IMG/VR virus record: IMGVR_UViG_3300035529_000070
Span: 1 to 58,113 of that record
Source of the DNA: a virus
Length of the DNA stretch: 58,113 nt
Direction: 5' to 3' (one strand)
Each line of letters begins with the position of its first letter. Position 1 is the first letter of the stretch. The position numbers were made by a program, and so were the translations under genes. Shown here piece after piece: positions 22,205 to 33,491 of this stretch. The notes under the pieces were generated by a model. It made no database searches. It was not told where the DNA came from and was given only the letters and a program-made list of their open reading frames with translations.

Positions 22205-22635
22205 TGGTGGAGACGGCGGGACTCGAACCCGCGTCCGAACATTCAGTAACACCCTGGTTGTCTTTACAGCTTTAACTACTTTAATGTTCACCAATTCATG
22301 GTGTAGTTAGCCGAGAATTTGGTATATCTCTTTTATTTAGTCTAGCCTTTGAAAAGGATTTCCCCTCAAGAGATCAACAAAGTGCCAGAACGGTCTTTGT
22401 ATAATACGTATAGAGTGAGTCAGACCGCAGGCAATCTTCTATACGACAGTCTTGTTAAAATGGCAGTGTTATATTCAGTAGACTGTAACTTACTAATAAC
22501 ACTGAATGGCGCGACTAGGCAGCCATTGGCATTGGTTTTTCGTTGTTTATATTTAAGCAACTTGTTTTAAGAGGATAGTCAACCTCTGCTGCCCAAGGTG
22601 TTACCGATAATGCCCGTCGATACCAGGTCGTCCCC
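22205..22635 (-). ncRNA. ssrA: tmRNA (431 nt)
   Basis: 5' GGGGACGACCTGGTATCGAC; 3' GACGCGGGTTCGAGTCCCGCCGTCTCCACCA with G3:U pair; internal tag ORF (I)NNEKPMPMAA* at 22550-22515. Confidence 0.95.
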
Positions 22636-24608: not shown

Positions 24609-26567
24609 TTACATCTTAAAGGTTATCAAGTAATTGTAGCTCAAATATGCTCCAGTTGGGTTTGTCACCTTGATTCTTCTTCTTTTTCTTTCTATTCCAT
24701 TTTCGTCGTAGTATACTTCTTCATCATCGCCTTGTATTGGTAGTCCTCCGCCTTCTATATCTCCTACAACTGTAATGTGCACGAAGTCTATATTATCGTA
24801 TGGTAGAAGGTAACTTTCTCCAGGGCCAAGTGTTTTTGTTCCTATTCTGATCTGGGTTGGGACCATGCTATCTTTGTTACCGTTATCATGGTATATATTC
24901 AATCCAGATACATATTTATCTTCCTCAGCCACATTTCTTTTATCCCTGAAAGTCTCAACCATTTCTTCTTTCTTGTAGTATCTTTCATCATGGTCGTGCC
25001 CTTCCAAAGCAAATTCGTCTATTTCCTTTCCACCCAGCCTATAAGAGGCAACTGCCCTATCTTCTTTAGATAGGTAGTGTATTTCATTACCATCTTCATC
25101 GTAATGGCTTTTGTGTCCTTTTAAGGCAAAGTCATCCATACCATATGTTCCTCCGCTTATGTTGTCATAGAATTTCTTAGCTCCTATAGGTATGTCTGTT
25201 TCCTGCATTAATACACTATCATGGTTGTGCCCTATTTCTGCAAAGTCATCTGTTGTGTATAGCCTAAAAAAAGAGCCTTCAACTTTGTCGCTTAAGTATG
25301 GTATTCCTTCTACATATTCTACACTTGATTGTTCTTTTGTGTTTGTCAATTGTTCCAATATTCCTTTTAACTCTGCCTCTTCTACTTTTTCCCCTAACAG
25401 AAATTCTGCATCTATATCTGCCAAATCTTCAATCCTGGCATATCCCTGCCTATCGTGGTTATGATCGGTTGATGCAAAGTCATCTGGGAAGTATCTTTCA
25501 CCTGTATTTTTGTCTATTAAATACTGAACATTTTTTACAGGATCTGTTGTCCTTAAGTATTTAGAATGGCTATCCAATATATCTTCATGCCCAACTACCG
25601 CTATATCATCTGCCGAATGGGGTTCTTCATTTTCATCCAGTATGTAATCAGCGTATTGTGCTTCCGGCACTATATATTTTATACCATTTAACGGTTGGTC
25701 ATTGAGTATAGCGTTTCTTTTGCCTTCGTTGCTATCTGAACTTGCATTCATTATATTCATATTCAAGGCCAGGTCATCTGCCCATTTGCTCATTTGATCT
25801 ATATCTACTTCATTCAATTTGTCAAAATCTACAATACCATAGATAGTTTCGCCAAACCTTATTATATCATTAGATAACTCTTCAGCCTCTGCCGTCCTGT
25901 TTTCCATCACCATATGCATTGCATACTTTTGCCCCAATAACCCTACAATAATCTTAGAATATTCCTTTATTAAATCGTCTTTTTTAGCCATGTTATATAT
26001 AGCCTTTAAGGCATTGTATTCTCCTATCCCCTGTACATCAATATCTTTATTCCATGCCTTATGGTGTTCCTTTACAAACACCCTTGCAGAGAAGATTGTA
26101 GCCAATAAGAAGAAGTCTTCAATTAGCTCTGCCCTGTAACTTCCACCGAACCTGTTAACATTTAGTGAATTTTCCCACATGTTTTCATATACATATGGTG
26201 CAATGCCTGTATTATCTGATGTTTGAGTGCCATAGAAATTCTGTATAAGCTCAGCAAAAAAGAAACAGGCTACATAAGTCTGTTTATCGGTATTTTGAGC
26301 ATAATCTTTTGTACCCGTGATTACTTCCTTAATTTCGATTAACAGTTCTTTGAAAGATAGACCATCAGGACTGTTGAGGGGATGTTCATTTGGAAGATGG
26401 GACAAGAAGGTATTTAAATAGCCCTGTATTGAGCCTTTATTATAATTATCTAATATATATTGGATTGCTTGTTTAATAGCCTGGTAAGTCAATTTAGTGG
26501 CAACTGAATTCATTTTAGGGATATAAACTTTAAATGGATCTGTTGTGTTTATATATTGGTTAAGCAT
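24609..26567 (-). CDS. 652-aa protein with HxH(D) repeats (tail-fibre-like)
   Basis: FASTDHNHD, FAEIGHNHD, FALKGHKSH and FALEGHDHDERY repeats. Confidence 0.6.
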   Translation of the reverse strand: MLNQYINTTDPFKVYIPKMNSVATKLTYQAIKQAIQYILDNYNKGSIQGYLNTFLSHLPNEHPLNSPDGLSFKELLIEIKEVITGTKDYAQNTDKQTYVACFFFAELIQNFYGTQTSDNTGIAPYVYENMWENSLNVNRFGGSYRAELIEDFFLLATIFSARVFVKEHHKAWNKDIDVQGIGEYNALKAIYNMAKKDDLIKEYSKIIVGLLGQKYAMHMVMENRTAEAEELSNDIIRFGETIYGIVDFDKLNEVDIDQMSKWADDLALNMNIMNASSDSNEGKRNAILNDQPLNGIKYIVPEAQYADYILDENEEPHSADDIAVVGHEDILDSHSKYLRTTDPVKNVQYLIDKNTGERYFPDDFASTDHNHDRQGYARIEDLADIDAEFLLGEKVEEAELKGILEQLTNTKEQSSVEYVEGIPYLSDKVEGSFFRLYTTDDFAEIGHNHDSVLMQETDIPIGAKKFYDNISGGTYGMDDFALKGHKSHYDEDGNEIHYLSKEDRAVASYRLGGKEIDEFALEGHDHDERYYKKEEMVETFRDKRNVAEEDKYVSGLNIYHDNGNKDSMVPTQIRIGTKTLGPGESYLLPYDNIDFVHITVVGDIEGGGLPIQGDDEEVYYDENGIERKRRRIKVTNPTGAYLSYNYLITFKM

Positions 26568-26706
26568 TGGATCACTTCCCTCCTATAATATAAAGAAATT
26601 ATATCATGTTTCAAAAAGTAGAATAGTTAAGTAAAATATAAACATATATTGGTATATATTATATGTTAAGTAATGGGTAGTATTAAATAAATAAGGAGGA
26701 GATAAA

Positions 26707-27081
26707 ATGGATTTAGAGAAAAAAGTAGAGGAAGTGTTGTCGTCTTTTTCTATGTATAATTGGGATAGAGTAAAAGTAGATGGGGAAGTAATTACTTTTC
26801 CTAAAGAAGTATATAACCATAAATTGGAAGAAAGTTTAAATGGTGAAGATGGAGATATAATTGGGAAGAGAATAATGGAAGAAATGACTACCCTCGAGGA
26901 ATTTTCAAAGGTTGTGAAAAGGTCTGTATCAAATATCACCACGGATATATCTGTTTCAATTAATTATAAGAAGTTATTAGAAAAATGGGTAGCTAGTAAA
27001 ATGAGGGAATATCTATACAGTGTAATGCCTGATATATATAAAAAGTATGGGCATGCGATATTAAAGGAGTTGTTGAAATGA
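26707..27081 (+). CDS. C-terminal-motif family member 1
   Basis: Ends LYSVMPDIYKKYGHAILKELLK. Confidence 0.8.
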   Translation: MDLEKKVEEVLSSFSMYNWDRVKVDGEVITFPKEVYNHKLEESLNGEDGDIIGKRIMEEMTTLEEFSKVVKRSVSNITTDISVSINYKKLLEKWVASKMREYLYSVMPDIYKKYGHAILKELLK

Positions 27082-27209
27082 GTGATTTTAACCAATTTAA
27101 AGACAGAATAAATTCAGTTGTTTGCTGTGTTTTATATGAGAAATATCCCAATATGTATAAACATTATGACGGGAATATACTTAAATCAAGATTGGAGGAG
27201 ACAAAATGA
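27078..27209 (+). CDS. 43-aa minimal family member 2 (essentially motif only)
   Basis: Hand-translated MSDFNQFKDRINSVVCCVLYEKYPNMYKHYDGNILKSRLEETK; ATGA overlaps at both ends; aaggag RBS. Confidence 0.75.
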   Translation: MSDFNQFKDRINSVVCCVLYEKYPNMYKHYDGNILKSRLEETK

Positions 27210-27775
27210 GTATAACTAATTATAAATCAGAAAATGAAATTTTTAAAAATGTCCATAATTTAATGGAACAAATATCTGCAATTCAAGACGATAGAGATAA
27301 TCATATTATAAGTGAGAAAGAATATGATTCTAAATTGAGAACATATCTATATAAAATAATAGATGAATTTGAGCTAAACGATTGGGGAAGTACACAAGGT
27401 ACTATCTTTCAAAGTGTACCTATCCCTGGATATATGAGAAATAGATATATAGAAAAGTTGTCTATATATGGTGTGATTTTTGAAGATGAATTAAAACCAG
27501 AATTAACAAACTATATTTTAACAGAATTGATAGATTTAATAATTAAAGAGTTCGATAAAGTTGTTGAGACTATCGCAGTTAAATATAATGGCACAACCAA
27601 TGATGTATATGAATCTAAAAGTGATGAAACAAAAGAGCCTGAAATGTATTTAAGAAATTTTATAGAATTTCATATATGGGTAGTATTATATAAAACTATT
27701 CCAAATATTTATAAGTTGAATGGACATAAAATATTGAACTTTAAACTGGCAAATTATAAGAGATACATATCATGA
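27206..27775 (+). CDS. C-terminal-motif family member 3
   Basis: LYKTIPNIYKLNGHKILNFKL. Confidence 0.8.
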   Translation: MSITNYKSENEIFKNVHNLMEQISAIQDDRDNHIISEKEYDSKLRTYLYKIIDEFELNDWGSTQGTIFQSVPIPGYMRNRYIEKLSIYGVIFEDELKPELTNYILTELIDLIIKEFDKVVETIAVKYNGTTNDVYESKSDETKEPEMYLRNFIEFHIWVVLYKTIPNIYKLNGHKILNFKLANYKRYIS

Positions 27776-28350
27776 GTAGAAAACAAAAACAACAGTTAGT
27801 AGCTATGCAACAATATAAAATTCCAGTATCTGCTTCTTTGGAAAAGCTATTGAATAATATAACAGATACTAATGATAATAGTATTAATTCTTTTACATCA
27901 AAAAAATATATAAAAAAGTATGCCAAAGATGTATTTGTAAATTTTGTCAGGTTGAACTTTATAACACATAATGAATATGCTATAACCGGATTTGGATCAG
28001 CAGGGCTAACCCATAAAAAATCGTATATATCTATAATATATTCCAGCAAATTTTTGCAAGATTTAAATAAAATAAATAAAACAACTCAGGATATGGGTGT
28101 AAAGTTCAAAATAGATTTACTCTACCATGCCTTTATGAAACAATTGATAAAAGATTTCCCTGTATTAGCGTATAATATAAGAAAAATTATAGAGAAAAAA
28201 AGATTAATTCTTACACCAGAATTAGAGATGCCAGTGACTTACGGTCAAGCCATACATGACTTTTTCTCATTTATGTACAACGTAATGCCAAATATTTATA
28301 AGCAATATGGGCATGAATTGCTACATCTTAGGATTAAATTCTCAAAGTAA
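27772..28350 (+). CDS. C-terminal-motif family member 4
   Basis: MYNVMPNIYKQYGHELLHLRI. Confidence 0.8.
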   Translation: MSRKQKQQLVAMQQYKIPVSASLEKLLNNITDTNDNSINSFTSKKYIKKYAKDVFVNFVRLNFITHNEYAITGFGSAGLTHKKSYISIIYSSKFLQDLNKINKTTQDMGVKFKIDLLYHAFMKQLIKDFPVLAYNIRKIIEKKRLILTPELEMPVTYGQAIHDFFSFMYNVMPNIYKQYGHELLHLRIKFSK

Positions 28351-28416
28351 ATGATGGTATCATTCACAATTCTGATGGACACGATTGATTGAAATTGAAA
28401 TTAAAAGGAGACTTTA

Positions 28417-29022
28417 ATGATGATAAAAAGTTTATTCAAAACAGATGACTTTTGGGTTAGGTTTAAATATTATACAAATGATATTAGTCATGCAGAACTT
28501 AATCAAAAAATTTCAGAAAATGTAAAGGATTTGGAGATATATAAAATTGGTAAAGAAACTAAAAACCCTATCGCAATGCAAGCAATCATTCACTATAATG
28601 TTCAAAAAGATGTATTTACTTTGCCATGTAATATAATATTATATTCACTCATGACATTGGATGATTGGGCAAAAAAGGGCATAGAACTAACTACAAGAGA
28701 ATGGATAATAAACGAAATAAGATATACTAATGACTTTATTAAAAATGAAAAACTTACATTCAATAGTATATACGATGATTACTTCAAATCATTTTTAAAA
28801 CTCTTGAATAGTGGAGTTGTGGAAAATAAAATAATTCGTAAAATGCATAACCAATTTACAAATGATCTCCGCCCAGTATTTAAAGATAAGAAAGATGAAG
28901 AAAAAGAACTCGTAATTTTATTTGAAAATATGTTATTGAAAGATCTATATATGGTTAAACCAGATTTTTACAAAAAATATGAAACGGAGTTTTTGAAATA
29001 TAGACTTAAAAGGAGGGGTTAG
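28417..29022 (+). CDS. C-terminal-motif family member 5
   Basis: LYMVKPDFYKKYETEFLKYRL. Confidence 0.8.
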   Translation: MMIKSLFKTDDFWVRFKYYTNDISHAELNQKISENVKDLEIYKIGKETKNPIAMQAIIHYNVQKDVFTLPCNIILYSLMTLDDWAKKGIELTTREWIINEIRYTNDFIKNEKLTFNSIYDDYFKSFLKLLNSGVVENKIIRKMHNQFTNDLRPVFKDKKDEEKELVILFENMLLKDLYMVKPDFYKKYETEFLKYRLKRRG

Positions 29023-29604
29023 ATGCAAAAAATAGAAAGAAAGAAAGTGTTTGCAGTGTTGAATGATATAGATAATACCAAAAAGACTAAAGAACATATT
29101 ACATTTTCTGGACGTATTGCACAATATATACTTGATGATGAAATCACTAGGTTGAAAAAAGGAATACAACAATTCAATTTTTATTTGAGATTAAACGAAG
29201 ATAAAACTCAGATAAAAGGCCAAACGGTTGTTTTTTATAGAGGATTAGATGCTTTGAGACTATTGAAGAAAATGCTTTTAGATGACAAATACGCTTCACT
29301 ATTAGATTCCTATGATTATACCATTGTTAAAAAATTGAGAAATAAACATGTAGATTCTAGTATATTCGAAGATTTAGAAAACTTTTTTTTCATGAAATAT
29401 ATAGAACATAGGCTATCTAACAATTTATCTAATGAGATTATAAATCAAATTAATAATATTAGCGAACTACGTTTAATACCATCAAGACAATTGGCAAGAC
29501 AATTTATGAACATTTTGGATAATCATATGTACACCTTAATGCCAGATGAATACAAAAAAATTGGTTCTTTACTGCTAGTACACAAATTGGAAGAAGGTTT
29601 ATGA
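29023..29604 (+). CDS. C-terminal-motif family member 6
   Basis: MYTLMPDEYKKIGSLLLVHKL. Confidence 0.8.
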   Translation: MQKIERKKVFAVLNDIDNTKKTKEHITFSGRIAQYILDDEITRLKKGIQQFNFYLRLNEDKTQIKGQTVVFYRGLDALRLLKKMLLDDKYASLLDSYDYTIVKKLRNKHVDSSIFEDLENFFFMKYIEHRLSNNLSNEIINQINNISELRLIPSRQLARQFMNILDNHMYTLMPDEYKKIGSLLLVHKLEEGL

Positions 29605-29658
29605 TGCCTACAGTCAATGTTGCGTTTTTTCCGCTTAAATTAGAAAGGGGATTTTATA

Positions 29659-30273
29659 ATGTTTAATAAAGAACCTATTTATATTTATATGGATTATGTG
29701 GGATCTTCAAAAGTGTCTTTTAAAGAATATCTTTCTGGTGATATAGCTCGTTTGGCATTTAGATTCGCCAAATGGATTAAAAACGATGAAATCGATGAAG
29801 TGTTTAATAGAGCTATTAACTTTCATATAACTTACGAACGAAAGAGAAAAGGTATATCAAACATTATAGTTGGATATGAAAAAATGGAAGCAGCAGATTT
29901 TTTAATAAAAGCAATAACTCAGAAAGATTTTTTAAAAGACTCTGAATCTTGGAAAGATTTTTTAGATACAGTTAATGTCATTGAACTGAAATACAATAAT
30001 GAAAATATTATAGATATTTTAAACGACGTTAAAACCAAATCAGTAGAAGAGTTCTTGCTATTTGCACAACAAAAAACACGAAATAACGAAACTGAATTAG
30101 ATCGAGCTATATCTGATGCATTTACTAGAAGATTCTCACCCTTCGAGCCAACTTCTGAAAATAAACGACTTGTCTTTTATTCTATTATAAGATACTTTTT
30201 TGAAAGGTTCCCTGATTACTATAAGCAATTTGGCAAAGAATTTCTACTAATCCAGCTAAATAAAAACATGTGA
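29659..30273 (+). CDS. C-terminal-motif family member 7
   Basis: FFERFPDYYKQFGKEFLLIQL. Confidence 0.8.
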   Translation: MFNKEPIYIYMDYVGSSKVSFKEYLSGDIARLAFRFAKWIKNDEIDEVFNRAINFHITYERKRKGISNIIVGYEKMEAADFLIKAITQKDFLKDSESWKDFLDTVNVIELKYNNENIIDILNDVKTKSVEEFLLFAQQKTRNNETELDRAISDAFTRRFSPFEPTSENKRLVFYSIIRYFFERFPDYYKQFGKEFLLIQLNKNM

Positions 30274-30310
30274 TTTTTGGTATATGTAAGACATTAGGAG
30301 GTGTTATTTG

Positions 30311-30892
30311 ATGAAACGAAAAATAGAACATGAAATATTTCCATTAGAAAATCGTGAACTTCCTTTACCAACAGAAGTTTTGCAGTCTTATAATGTATTA
30401 AAAAATATTTATAATTCTCGTTATCAACCAGACCAAATAGAAGATATAAAAAGCAAATGGTTATACTTCAAATCAAAAATTTCTAATTCATTCTCAGAAA
30501 GAATAGGGTATACTAAGTCTACAGTGATAACAACTAATAAGTATTTGAAAACGTTTTATGTATATAAGTATAATCCAAATTATCATGCTAGTAAATATAA
30601 AAATGAATATATGACAGACTTAATAGGGAACTTAGAAAAAGAGTATTTCGAAGATTTTATACAAAACTGGAGAAATTGGCAGTCTGTTTTAATAAATTCA
30701 ATAGATGAATTTGGGGATATATATAGACCAGGCAAACGTGATAATTCTCAAAGATTAAAATTAATATATACAGATATAGTGAATCAATCTTTTAAGAAAT
30801 TCTATAATTGTTGTCCTGATACATATAAGAAAAATGAATCAGATTTATTAAATATAAGATTAATAGCTTTGAAGGAGAATAAATATGTTTGA
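30311..30892 (+). CDS. C-terminal-motif family member 8
   Basis: FYNCCPDTYKKNESDLLNIRL. Confidence 0.8.
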   Translation: MKRKIEHEIFPLENRELPLPTEVLQSYNVLKNIYNSRYQPDQIEDIKSKWLYFKSKISNSFSERIGYTKSTVITTNKYLKTFYVYKYNPNYHASKYKNEYMTDLIGNLEKEYFEDFIQNWRNWQSVLINSIDEFGDIYRPGKRDNSQRLKLIYTDIVNQSFKKFYNCCPDTYKKNESDLLNIRLIALKENKYV

Positions 30893-31092
30893 TGTATATC
30901 CATTTTATATGAATATAATAGAGATAGTTGTATAGCTCATGAAACTGAATTGTTCTTATCATAATTAAAAGGGTAAAGATAAAAAACATCAAAATCTAAC
31001 GTTGTATAAGGCCATAATAAATATTTTTATATAATTTTAGTATAATCTATCATGAATAAACTATAACGTCTTAGAGGGCAAATAAAAGAGAG

Positions 31093-31833
31093 GTGATAAA
31101 AATCAATTTAGAAGAATTTAAACCCGAATGGACAATTAAAAAATTAACTGCAGGATTCAACGCTCCAAACAGTTCTAATAGTGCAGAAGTTGATAGAGTT
31201 AAAAAAAATATTTTAATATTTGGGGACAATATACAATTTAATGCACATCATTCCCTAATAGATTTTTTTAAGAAGAAAGCTACATTACAAAGAATAGAAA
31301 ACTTTTATTATATCATTCATACACAACATATAAATACAGATGGCGATTGCATTGACAAAACAATCAAATATCTGAAAGCAATGTTTGAAATTACATTATA
31401 TTATGACAAACCTGAATACAAATTAGCTCAAAAAACTCTACAACCTCATCATGCACATAAGATGTATAAAACATTAAATAGCAACAAAAATATAGCAGAA
31501 AGAGAGAGATTCTTAAATGATATAGCAAATTATATTTTAGCTAGAGAAATTAAAAATGTATATAGTTATATGTTTATAGATAAAGATACAATAGAAGAAT
31601 ATAAACAAGCTATTATTTCGGCAAGGGAAAGCTATAAAATAAATGTATTACCCAACGAAAAAACTTTAGCTAAAGATACAAAAATGGCATTCCACTATTA
31701 TACCAAGATCGTTCAATCTTATTTCCCAAAATATATAGAGGAGAATTACAATATTATATTTGAAAGGATGTTAGGTTTCAATAAAATAATAAAGGAAAGT
31801 GAGGAGATATTATATGCCAATATTAGAAATTAA
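31093..31833 (+). CDS. hypothetical protein, possible diverged family member
   Basis: VQSYFPKYIEENYNIIFERML near the C-terminus. Confidence 0.7.
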   Translation: MIKINLEEFKPEWTIKKLTAGFNAPNSSNSAEVDRVKKNILIFGDNIQFNAHHSLIDFFKKKATLQRIENFYYIIHTQHINTDGDCIDKTIKYLKAMFEITLYYDKPEYKLAQKTLQPHHAHKMYKTLNSNKNIAERERFLNDIANYILAREIKNVYSYMFIDKDTIEEYKQAIISARESYKINVLPNEKTLAKDTKMAFHYYTKIVQSYFPKYIEENYNIIFERMLGFNKIIKESEEILYANIRN

Positions 31834-32314
31834 CCAAGAGTATAAAGAATACTTAGGTGCTAAATTAGAAAAAGTTCTATCCATATTATTTGTAAAATAT
31901 ACAGAAGAGAAAATAACTATGAAAGAAGCTCTCATGGAAATATATAATTTGTTTGAACAAGATTATATAAAATATTTTGAACATCCAGAATATTTTACCA
32001 AAAATATCACACGAAGTATTTTAAATGTCAGACACAGAACAGATTATACAACAAATACCGTAGCAGTAAATCTTATGAAATTACTTAAAACAGCATATGA
32101 AATTAACCCTGAATACTATTCGAAATTTATTAAATCTTTGATCAATGATTTTAGGCAATTAGAACAGAAATTCAAAAAGCCTATTGAAATATCAGAAATA
32201 ACTATTTCTTCTTTAGAAAACGATTTATTTTTGAACAGAATTTATAATAACAATATATTTGTCAATTACGGTACACCAAAAGAATTTTTAAATACATTTA
32301 AAAGATTAATTTAG
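31814..32314 (+). CDS. hypothetical protein with (Y/F)xEHPE motif
   Basis: gaggag RBS; KYFEHPEY; AYEINPEYYSKF. Confidence 0.7.
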   Translation: MPILEINQEYKEYLGAKLEKVLSILFVKYTEEKITMKEALMEIYNLFEQDYIKYFEHPEYFTKNITRSILNVRHRTDYTTNTVAVNLMKLLKTAYEINPEYYSKFIKSLINDFRQLEQKFKKPIEISEITISSLENDLFLNRIYNNNIFVNYGTPKEFLNTFKRLI

Positions 32315-32325
32315 GAGGGAGGAAT

Positions 32326-32940
32326 ATGCTTTGGAAACATCCAGAACATTTTAAAGATTTAAATGAAGAAATAAAAAATGAAATAAAAGATAATAAAATA
32401 AATATTTCTAAATATATTGAACATCCTGAACAGCTACATAATGAAAGCCAAGTTATAATTATATTATTGAAAAGGTTATTAACTTCTTTATCAAATACTG
32501 GTCCATCAGCTTTATCCAGGGATCCTGATTATGAAGCTATAGCAAACTTCCTTGCCTTTGAAGGAGAGTTTGAATCTAATATATTTGCTACATATTCAAT
32601 TTTAAAAAATTTGGAAATTATAAATGAAATATTTGATTTAGAAAAAGATCCCCAACGTTTCAATATTTTTAGATTGATATATAACAGCATATATAAATTC
32701 AAAGATCATGATCAATTACACTACATAAACAATAAATATGTATCTGTGTATAAGTGGTATTTAAAAGCATTGTCTTCAACCTACATAGAGAATAAGTTGT
32801 TTGAAATATACGTTTCCAATGATAAGAAGGGATATAAAGCAGAAAACAAAAAAACATTTATGAAACTAATTAAATTATTGAACAACGGAGATCTAACAAA
32901 CAAATTAATTCAAAAGGATATAGAGGAGGGGAAAAAATGA
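32326..32940 (+). CDS. hypothetical protein with EHPE motif
   Basis: ggagg RBS; WKHPEH and KYIEHPEQ. Confidence 0.75.
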   Translation: MLWKHPEHFKDLNEEIKNEIKDNKINISKYIEHPEQLHNESQVIIILLKRLLTSLSNTGPSALSRDPDYEAIANFLAFEGEFESNIFATYSILKNLEIINEIFDLEKDPQRFNIFRLIYNSIYKFKDHDQLHYINNKYVSVYKWYLKALSSTYIENKLFEIYVSNDKKGYKAENKKTFMKLIKLLNNGDLTNKLIQKDIEEGKK

Positions 32941-33272
32941 AAATTTTCTTAGAAAGCATTACAAATAATGAAGAATTAGAAGAAAAAATAAAATATACAG
33001 TAGAACATCCAGATAATGTACATTTAAACATATTATGTGAAAACATAAAAAACTATTTGTTGAATGTTCCCAATATAAAACCCTCTATTAAAATATTGCA
33101 AAAATATCCATCGTTCAACAAAAAATTCATAGATTACACAATAAAAAATGTTTTTTCACAGCCTATAAATGATATCAAAAACGGATATGAAATAAAAAAA
33201 TTATTGAGTAAAAGCCCAGAATATTTTTATGAGGGAGCTAAAAAACGGTTTGAAGTATTATGCGGATTATAA
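32937..33272 (+). CDS. hypothetical protein with EHPD motif
   Basis: ATGA overlap; YTVEHPDN; LLSKSPEYFY. Confidence 0.7.
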   Translation: MKIFLESITNNEELEEKIKYTVEHPDNVHLNILCENIKNYLLNVPNIKPSIKILQKYPSFNKKFIDYTIKNVFSQPINDIKNGYEIKKLLSKSPEYFYEGAKKRFEVLCGL

Positions 33273-33358
33273 GAAAATAGCTACTACCTTTATTGGTAGT
33301 AGCCTTTTTTTTACCCACACATATCTTAAAGGAGAAATGAAAAAGCATCAGTATCTAA

Positions 33359-33490
33359 TTGACTTTTGCCTGTTCTGATGGTACAATTATTATGTAGTTG
33401 CATTTAGTCATCGGCGTACATCTTCTTTTTAATATCGAAGACATCCGCCACTCCAAGTCAAAGCAGGGGAATAAAGTCCCCTGTTTTTTT
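33359..33490 (+). ncRNA. candidate ~95-nt small RNA unit
   Basis: TTGACT-17-TACAAT with extended TG; no RBS or ORF; terminator cagggga/tcccctg plus T-run. Confidence 0.5.
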
Positions 33491-33491
33491 A

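Follow-up and report, generated by a model that had tools for sequence, protein, structure and literature searches.

The first 58 kb of a 183,532-bp virus record in IMG/VR (IMGVR_UViG_3300035529_000070; estimated completeness 82%) were analyzed here, and this whole stretch of 58,113 nucleotides (nt) is referred to as the window. Its plus strand carries eight consecutive open reading frames (ORFs) at 26707–30892, all of which were found to end in one conserved C-terminal module. We refer to these genes as the array, to the module as the tail, and to the part of each protein in front of it as the N-domain. GC content is approximately 0.26–0.29 across the array region. An initial annotation of this DNA had described the ORFs as sharing a common tail motif and as often being translationally coupled. 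All eight were recovered at the coordinates given below, and the coupling is evident from three ATGA overlaps and one 0-nt junction, with AGGAG-type ribosome sites preceding most members. The members of the array and its promoter-like elements are:

26650..26661, plus strand: promoter-like element TGGTATATATTA at the array head, 45 nt before the first ATG
26707..27081, plus strand: member 1, 124 amino acids (aa), a short acidic N-domain and the tail (26968–27078); ortholog P0014, 33% identical
27078..27209, plus strand: member 2, 43 aa, the module alone; ATGA overlap on each side, AAGGAG ribosome site, 57.8 bits with the hidden Markov model (HMM) of the tail
27206..27775, plus strand: member 3, 189 aa, N-domain net charge -13, tail at 27641–27772; ortholog P0009, 41% identical
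27772..28350, plus strand: member 4, 192 aa, N-domain net charge +13, tail at 28228–28347
28417..29022, plus strand: member 5, 201 aa, tail at 28900–29019; ortholog P0012, 41% identical
29023..29604, plus strand: member 6, 193 aa, tail at 29482–29601
29659..30273, plus strand: member 7, 204 aa, tail at 30151–30270
30278..30289, plus strand: second copy of the promoter-like element, TGGTATATGTAA, in front of member 8
30308..30892, plus strand: member 8, 194 aa, TTG start, tail at 30755–30889; ortholog P0007, 55% identical

A six-frame translation of the window contains nine copies of the tail core, P[DN]xYK, eight of which are in the tails of the eight ORFs. With a tail HMM of 35 columns, the members scored 48.7–58.2 bits, and the next best of the 2269 open frames in the whole 183.5-kb genome reached 9.0 bits. 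The four ORFs that follow the array (31093–33272) gave no score above noise with either the full-length or the tail HMM. Since the frames at 31093, 31799/31814, 32326, and 32937 are all at noise level, the family comprises exactly eight members in this phage. The earlier count of "8 or more" was thus right about the eight and not about any further members, and the weaker echoes of the motif that had been reported in 31093, 31814, and 32937 dissolve into noise with both models.

When the tails are aligned on their invariant Pro, the module is approximately 38 aa long (36–40 aa) and consists of an amphipathic helix, a P(D/N)xYK turn, and a second helix. Before the Pro, hydrophobic positions fall at -17, -13, -9/-8, -5/-4, and -1, that is, every 3–4 residues, and the first helix, which is amphipathic, terminates in (L/M/F)(Y/F). 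The P(D/N)xYK motif reads like a helix N-cap. Past the Pro, hydrophobic residues are found at +2/+3, +6, +10/+11, and +15, and Gly is frequent at +7. Most of the conserved residues are aromatic, hydrophobic, Pro, or Gly, which is typical of a protein core. Tails are basic in seven of the eight members (net charge +2 to +6, pI 8.7–10.0), and the eighth has a net charge of 0 and a pI of 6.9. A polar, charged linker lies in front of the module. The tail can stand as a unit of its own, since the 43-aa ORF contains nothing else and scores 57.8 bits. In addition, among the tails 110 pairs of shared amino acids use the same codon, compared with 140 expected from codon usage. Synonymous sites are therefore saturated, which indicates that selection on the protein, as opposed to recent DNA copying or gene conversion, has maintained the motif; by this measure, the tail motif is old.

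The N-domains vary in length (0 in member 2, approximately 88 aa in member 1, and 146–165 aa in the other six) and in net charge, which spans -13 (27206) to +13 (27772). No membrane segments were predicted in any family member. Six members are indeed 189–204 aa long, as noted previously, and the claim that the N-termini lack visible similarity holds at the sequence level in four kinds of comparison. When each of seven tail-stripped N-domains was left out in turn, HMMs of the others failed to recover six of them; the seventh, 29023, came up as its own top hit only at E 0.015. All hhalign probabilities between ortholog-pair profiles of tail-stripped N-domains were below 2%. Smith–Waterman comparison gave z-scores above 3 in 5 of 55 family N-domain pairs (maximum 5.9), compared with 5 of 132 control pairs against unrelated window proteins (maximum 5.4). 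A Gibbs search of the N-domains returned only generic amphipathic patterns, which were scattered and non-collinear, and no second conserved block. Two candidate signs of kinship were rejected in the course of this analysis: z-scores above 3, which arise at the same rate against unrelated proteins, and a second N-domain block, [KD][FY][LI][KE], which had been a by-eye impression and was dismissed by the Gibbs search against shuffles.

Structure prediction was applied to two ortholog pairs (30308 and 28417). The AlphaFold2 models had a predicted local distance difference test (pLDDT) score of 40 and 45, too low for a fold search, and ESM Atlas models (pLDDT 0.55 and 0.38) gave no credible structural neighbour. 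The sole agreement among the low-confidence AlphaFold models is in the tail, which is modelled as a helix, a break at the Pro, and a helix (in 28417, helix 159–180, break at Pro182, and helix 182–198). In the N-part they differ, 30308 being all-helical and 28417 containing strands at 39–68.

The family is rare. When 1.84 billion representative proteins were searched exhaustively with the HMM, 13 hits were obtained. The non-self hits are member-specific orthologs in which both N-domain and tail are conserved (P0007, P0009, P0012, and P0014), and P0013 carries the family tail with an N-domain that matches none of those in the window (hhalign below 2%, and local scores). In the ortholog pairs, identity is 31–49% in the N-domain and 40–66% in the tail. 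N-domains are thus conserved almost as well as tails, which implies that each N-domain is under its own constraint. All orthologs are singletons on short ENA or JGI contigs. A word-based homolog search recovered the protein of this phage itself and nothing else, and no match was found in five IMG/VR and two JGI metagenome scans with members, orthologs, or array-flanking genes, or in DNA and tblastn searches of deposited phages. Comparison with known families was also negative. Pfam contained no F-box, PRANC, helix-turn-helix (HTH), or recurrent family for full-length members at E 0.1 or for the eight tails at E 10; members had no match in PHROGs at E 0.01; PADLOC gave a single weak BrxC match to one member (13 bits) and nothing else; PDB sequences had no match to the tail profile at E 10; and ortholog-pair profiles compared with known families yielded nothing usable. 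The initial annotation had not recognized this family, and the present searches matched it to no known one. By these searches, the module of the array is a new protein family.

The array is part of a larger inserted block, whose remaining features are:

~26568..33491, plus strand: accessory block of 12 ORFs with its own promoter-like elements and terminators, ~6.9 kb, between two late-strand genes
31093–31833, 31799–32314, 32326–32940, and 32937–33272, plus strand: four small ORFs of the block outside the family, downstream of a 200-nt gap, with no Pfam or PHROG match
33280..33303, plus strand: terminator-like hairpin that closes the block, a hairpin on both strands

To place this block among related phages, we used the fused beta-beta' RNA polymerase (RNAP) of the virus, which lies beyond the window (genome 94988–97507, plus strand; one 2614-aa open frame). 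Its nearest deposited relatives are in Vibrio phages D181, D148, and D69 and Salmonella phage Arash (36–37% identity), and the array family is absent from D181 and Arash, the two that were scanned. Alignment of RNAP recovered a lineage set of 80 IMG/VR records, 14 of which are at least 90% complete. The closest relative, G001 (185,437 bp, 91% complete), has an RNAP that is 74% identical. No family members were detected in G001 or the rest of the 80 records, save one marginal match in G075 outside the tail. This match (L085, G075:C1:75331–75495, minus strand; 17 bits, E 3.8e-4) covers N-domain columns 61–119 within a 318-aa frame that has no tail, and was discarded as probably spurious. The tail-less ORFs 31093 and 32326 were likewise not found in the 17 most complete lineage records.

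Both genes that flank the block have orthologs in G001 (65% and 70% identical), which lie approximately 1.8 kb apart there. Between them are only three small late-strand genes, the same three that follow the block in the window, and an 18-nt gap separates the 654-aa gene from the next late gene, where the block is absent. Because G001 lacks the block by a clean indel and the family is not present in the 80 records, the block is accessory and dispensable for such a phage. Either loss in G001 or transfer between phages would fit the origin of this indel. The orthologs on other contigs, which are 33–55% identical, indicate that the cassette is also present in more distant phages.

The promoter-like elements at 26650 and 30278 are two of 13 exact copies of TGGTATAT(A/G)T(A/T)A (extended consensus tTGGTATATATTAtatgtta) in the genome, all of which are on the plus strand (window copies within 4207–30289) and most of which lie just upstream of plus-strand genes. 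The element has no obvious -35 box, and only an A-rich stretch is found upstream of it. G001 contains nine forward copies and no reverse copy. Since the element is confined to the plus strand in both phages, the array belongs to a phage-wide plus-strand regulon opposite the late structural strand. We infer that the array is probably expressed early or middle. The initial annotation had called these proteins early, which is reasonable given the strand and the plus-strand element at 26650 and 30278, and goes too far as a flat statement.

Several other observations were made around the block. At its right edge (33359–33487, plus strand), a near-consensus sigma-70-type promoter (TTGACT, 17 nt, TACAAT, with TG) is followed by approximately 100 nt with a stem-loop and a strong terminator hairpin (-26.6 kcal/mol, z = -4.5 against shuffles). 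This segment looks like a small-RNA minigene; Rfam had no match anywhere in the block, 33359–33487 included. The 652-aa late-strand protein adjoining the block (24609–26567, minus strand) contains four spaced D(D/E)FA..(G/D)H.(H/S)(D/H) repeats, e.g., PDDFASTDHNHD, TDDFAEIGHNHD, MDDFALKGHKSH, and IDEFALEGHDHD, which recall the His-x-His metal sites of T4-type fibre tips. This protein has no Pfam or PHROG match, and its G001 ortholog is 65% identical. Farther away, at 22205–22635 (minus strand), ARAGORN calls a 431-nt transfer-messenger RNA, 5 nt from a tRNA-Ser(GCT), whose predicted 30-residue tag peptide is unlike a normal degradation tag.

The initial annotation had proposed a modular adaptor system that would gather many host targets at one hub. 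Its modular anatomy is supported by the stand-alone 43-aa module, the polar linker, the dissimilar N-domains, the conservation of N-domains in each ortholog, and the unmatched N-domain of P0013; the resemblance to F-box/PRANC proteins found no profile match in Pfam (E 0.1 for full-length members, E 10 for tails). The explanation that we favour, with a probability of about 0.42, is that the array is an optional host-interaction cassette, in which diversified N-domains are mounted on one C-terminal module that makes a common protein contact. The cassette belongs to a large, uncultured lytic phage with its own RNA polymerase, of which it is a lineage-restricted and dispensable part. Each product is a soluble protein with a variable N-domain, a polar linker, and a conserved basic C-terminal module. 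We infer that the family originated by tandem duplication of a gene of approximately 190 aa, which is favoured by the near-uniform length of six members, and that the N-domains, in adapting to different targets, later lost all recognizable resemblance. The C-terminal module would have been held constant by one common contact, either a shared partner or the other members themselves (homo- or hetero-oligomerization), and the 43-aa module-only product would bind at this same site. Judging from the optional early gene sets of other large phages, the cassette would likely act in host takeover or counter-defence.

Certain observations weigh against this explanation. Six members are of near-equal length, and weak collinear alignments were obtained, e.g., for 29659 versus 30308 and 27772 versus 30308, both of which fit plain diverged paralogs; a single fold along the whole length, which the initial annotation had named as refuting its proposal, may still apply, because the AlphaFold pLDDT is as low as 40 and 45; the tail could pack on its own N-domain within one conserved fold; and the timing of array expression is read from a sequence motif only. 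Ordinary diverged paralogs with one fold throughout, in which the C-terminal helices are simply the slowest-evolving core and have no shared partner, are the main alternative, which we regard as doubtful. The tail is in the same place in the six members of 189–204 aa, some full-length BLASTP alignments are collinear over 166–199 aa, and a few N-domain pairs have z-scores of 3–4. Such z-scores, however, are no higher than those against unrelated window proteins, and leave-one-out HMMs, hhalign, and the Gibbs search find nothing beyond the tail. One fold is also difficult to reconcile with a 43-aa member that is tail only, a 124-aa member with a much shorter front, N-domain charges from -13 to +13, and low-confidence models that differ (all-helical 30308 versus strands at 39–68 in 28417). 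An adaptor system, in which the 38-aa module docks eight specificity proteins on one hub, seems unlikely to us as it stands. Candidates for the hub would be a host protease and the RNA polymerase of either the host or the phage (the fused beta-beta' enzyme), and the 43-aa module-only peptide would then be a competitor that tunes hub occupancy.

Other explanations assign the tail a different kind of contact. Viral multigene families in which one small DNA-binding module is combined with variable partner domains, i.e., Bro-N and KilA-N, offer a precedent for a basic module that is a minimal HTH-type nucleic-acid-binding unit, the family then being regulators that bind DNA or RNA and differ in their effector or sensor domains. 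The tails agree with this in that seven of eight are basic (net +2 to +6, pI 8.7–10.0) whatever the charge of their N-domain, and in their layout of helix, short helix, Gly in most members, and helix. On the other hand, Pfam at E 10 yields no HTH or other family that recurs among the tails, PDB sequences have no match at E 10, the conserved residues are mostly of the core type with no conserved basic surface set, and one tail has a net charge of 0, so that we consider such a role distinctly improbable. The tail might also be an address label by which the proteins enter the procapsid or virion and are delivered together with the DNA. It would then be the C-terminal equivalent of the T4 capsid-targeting sequence or an encapsulin cargo peptide. 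The block sits between late structural-type genes, and in the P22 scaffolding protein a basic C-terminal helix-loop-helix of approximately 40 aa binds the coat protein, which is a precedent for such a label. T-even internal proteins provide another, being a highly diverse defence set whose only common part is the capsid targeting sequence (PMC3012670). The array genes, however, run opposite to the late genes and follow the plus-strand promoter-like element; G001, the nearest relative, builds its virion without the block; and six late-strand proteins already bear another, N-terminal leader, MIxxEF(I/M)K(T/S)A, which the array lacks. Because of the non-late strand, the block-free G001, and the separate leader, a virion label is very unlikely.

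The leader MIxxEF(I/M)K(T/S)A starts six late-strand proteins (window 1628–46158, minus strand, and genome 155909–156166, minus strand) and gives this phage a second, separate shared-short-label system. The leader is absent from all 12 ORFs of the block, none of which has K-x-A in its first 15 residues either.

Based on its layout, we classify the array with viral multigene families that have one fixed short module. The T4 internal proteins (IPI, IPII, IPIII, and Alt) are closest in logic: like the array, they are otherwise unrelated small phage proteins that share only one short conserved peptide and differ from one related phage to the next; the T4 proteins are also linked to counter-defence. 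Their label, however, is a 10-residue N-terminal leader on late proteins that is removed by the prohead protease, whereas that of the array is a 36–40-aa C-terminal helical module on proteins that are probably early. In architecture, the array resembles the poxvirus ankyrin/PRANC and viral F-box-like families, which are also multigene and have a C-terminal helical module (approximately 40–50 aa) behind an N-terminal part that is target-binding in those families. The array has no sequence match to F-box or PRANC. The poxvirus N-parts are all of one fold (ankyrin repeats), whereas the N-domains of the array have no detectable mutual sequence similarity, and the poxvirus hub, Skp1/cullin, belongs to eukaryotic ubiquitination, for which the array has no known counterpart. 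The Bro-N and KilA-N multigene families, reportedly described by Iyer, Koonin and Aravind in 2002, are similar in combining one small conserved module with many partner domains in paralogous viral genes. Their modules are N-terminal, DNA-binding, and represented by Pfam models, none of which matches the array, whereas the module of the array is C-terminal and much shorter.

With regard to the block as a whole, the hyperplastic regions of T4-type phages hold ORFan cassettes flanked by promoter-early stem-loop (PeSL) units (Arbiol et al. 2010, PMC2839356). As in the block, the small genes of these cassettes are non-essential, have no assigned function, and come with a promoter and terminator of their own; the cassettes sit between conserved modules, and related phages may carry or lack them. 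The block differs in being a 6.9-kb run of 12 ORFs, eight of which are of one family, and in belonging to a different lineage, one with a fused beta-beta' RNA polymerase.

With only 13 hits among 1.84 billion proteins, the wider importance of the family is limited unless the fold or the partner of the module proves general. If the adaptor system were true, the array would be a bacterial-virus counterpart of the F-box/PRANC families of eukaryotic viruses. If the tail is a common docking or pairing handle, the host-interaction cassette would be a compact natural case of a phage diversifying its host-directed proteins around one fixed contact, and the 43-aa module-only peptide would be a ready probe for the partner of a docking handle. 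The presence and absence of the cassette in two related phages amounts to a natural knockout, which predicts that the cassette would be dispensable for growth and relevant only on particular hosts or against particular defences.

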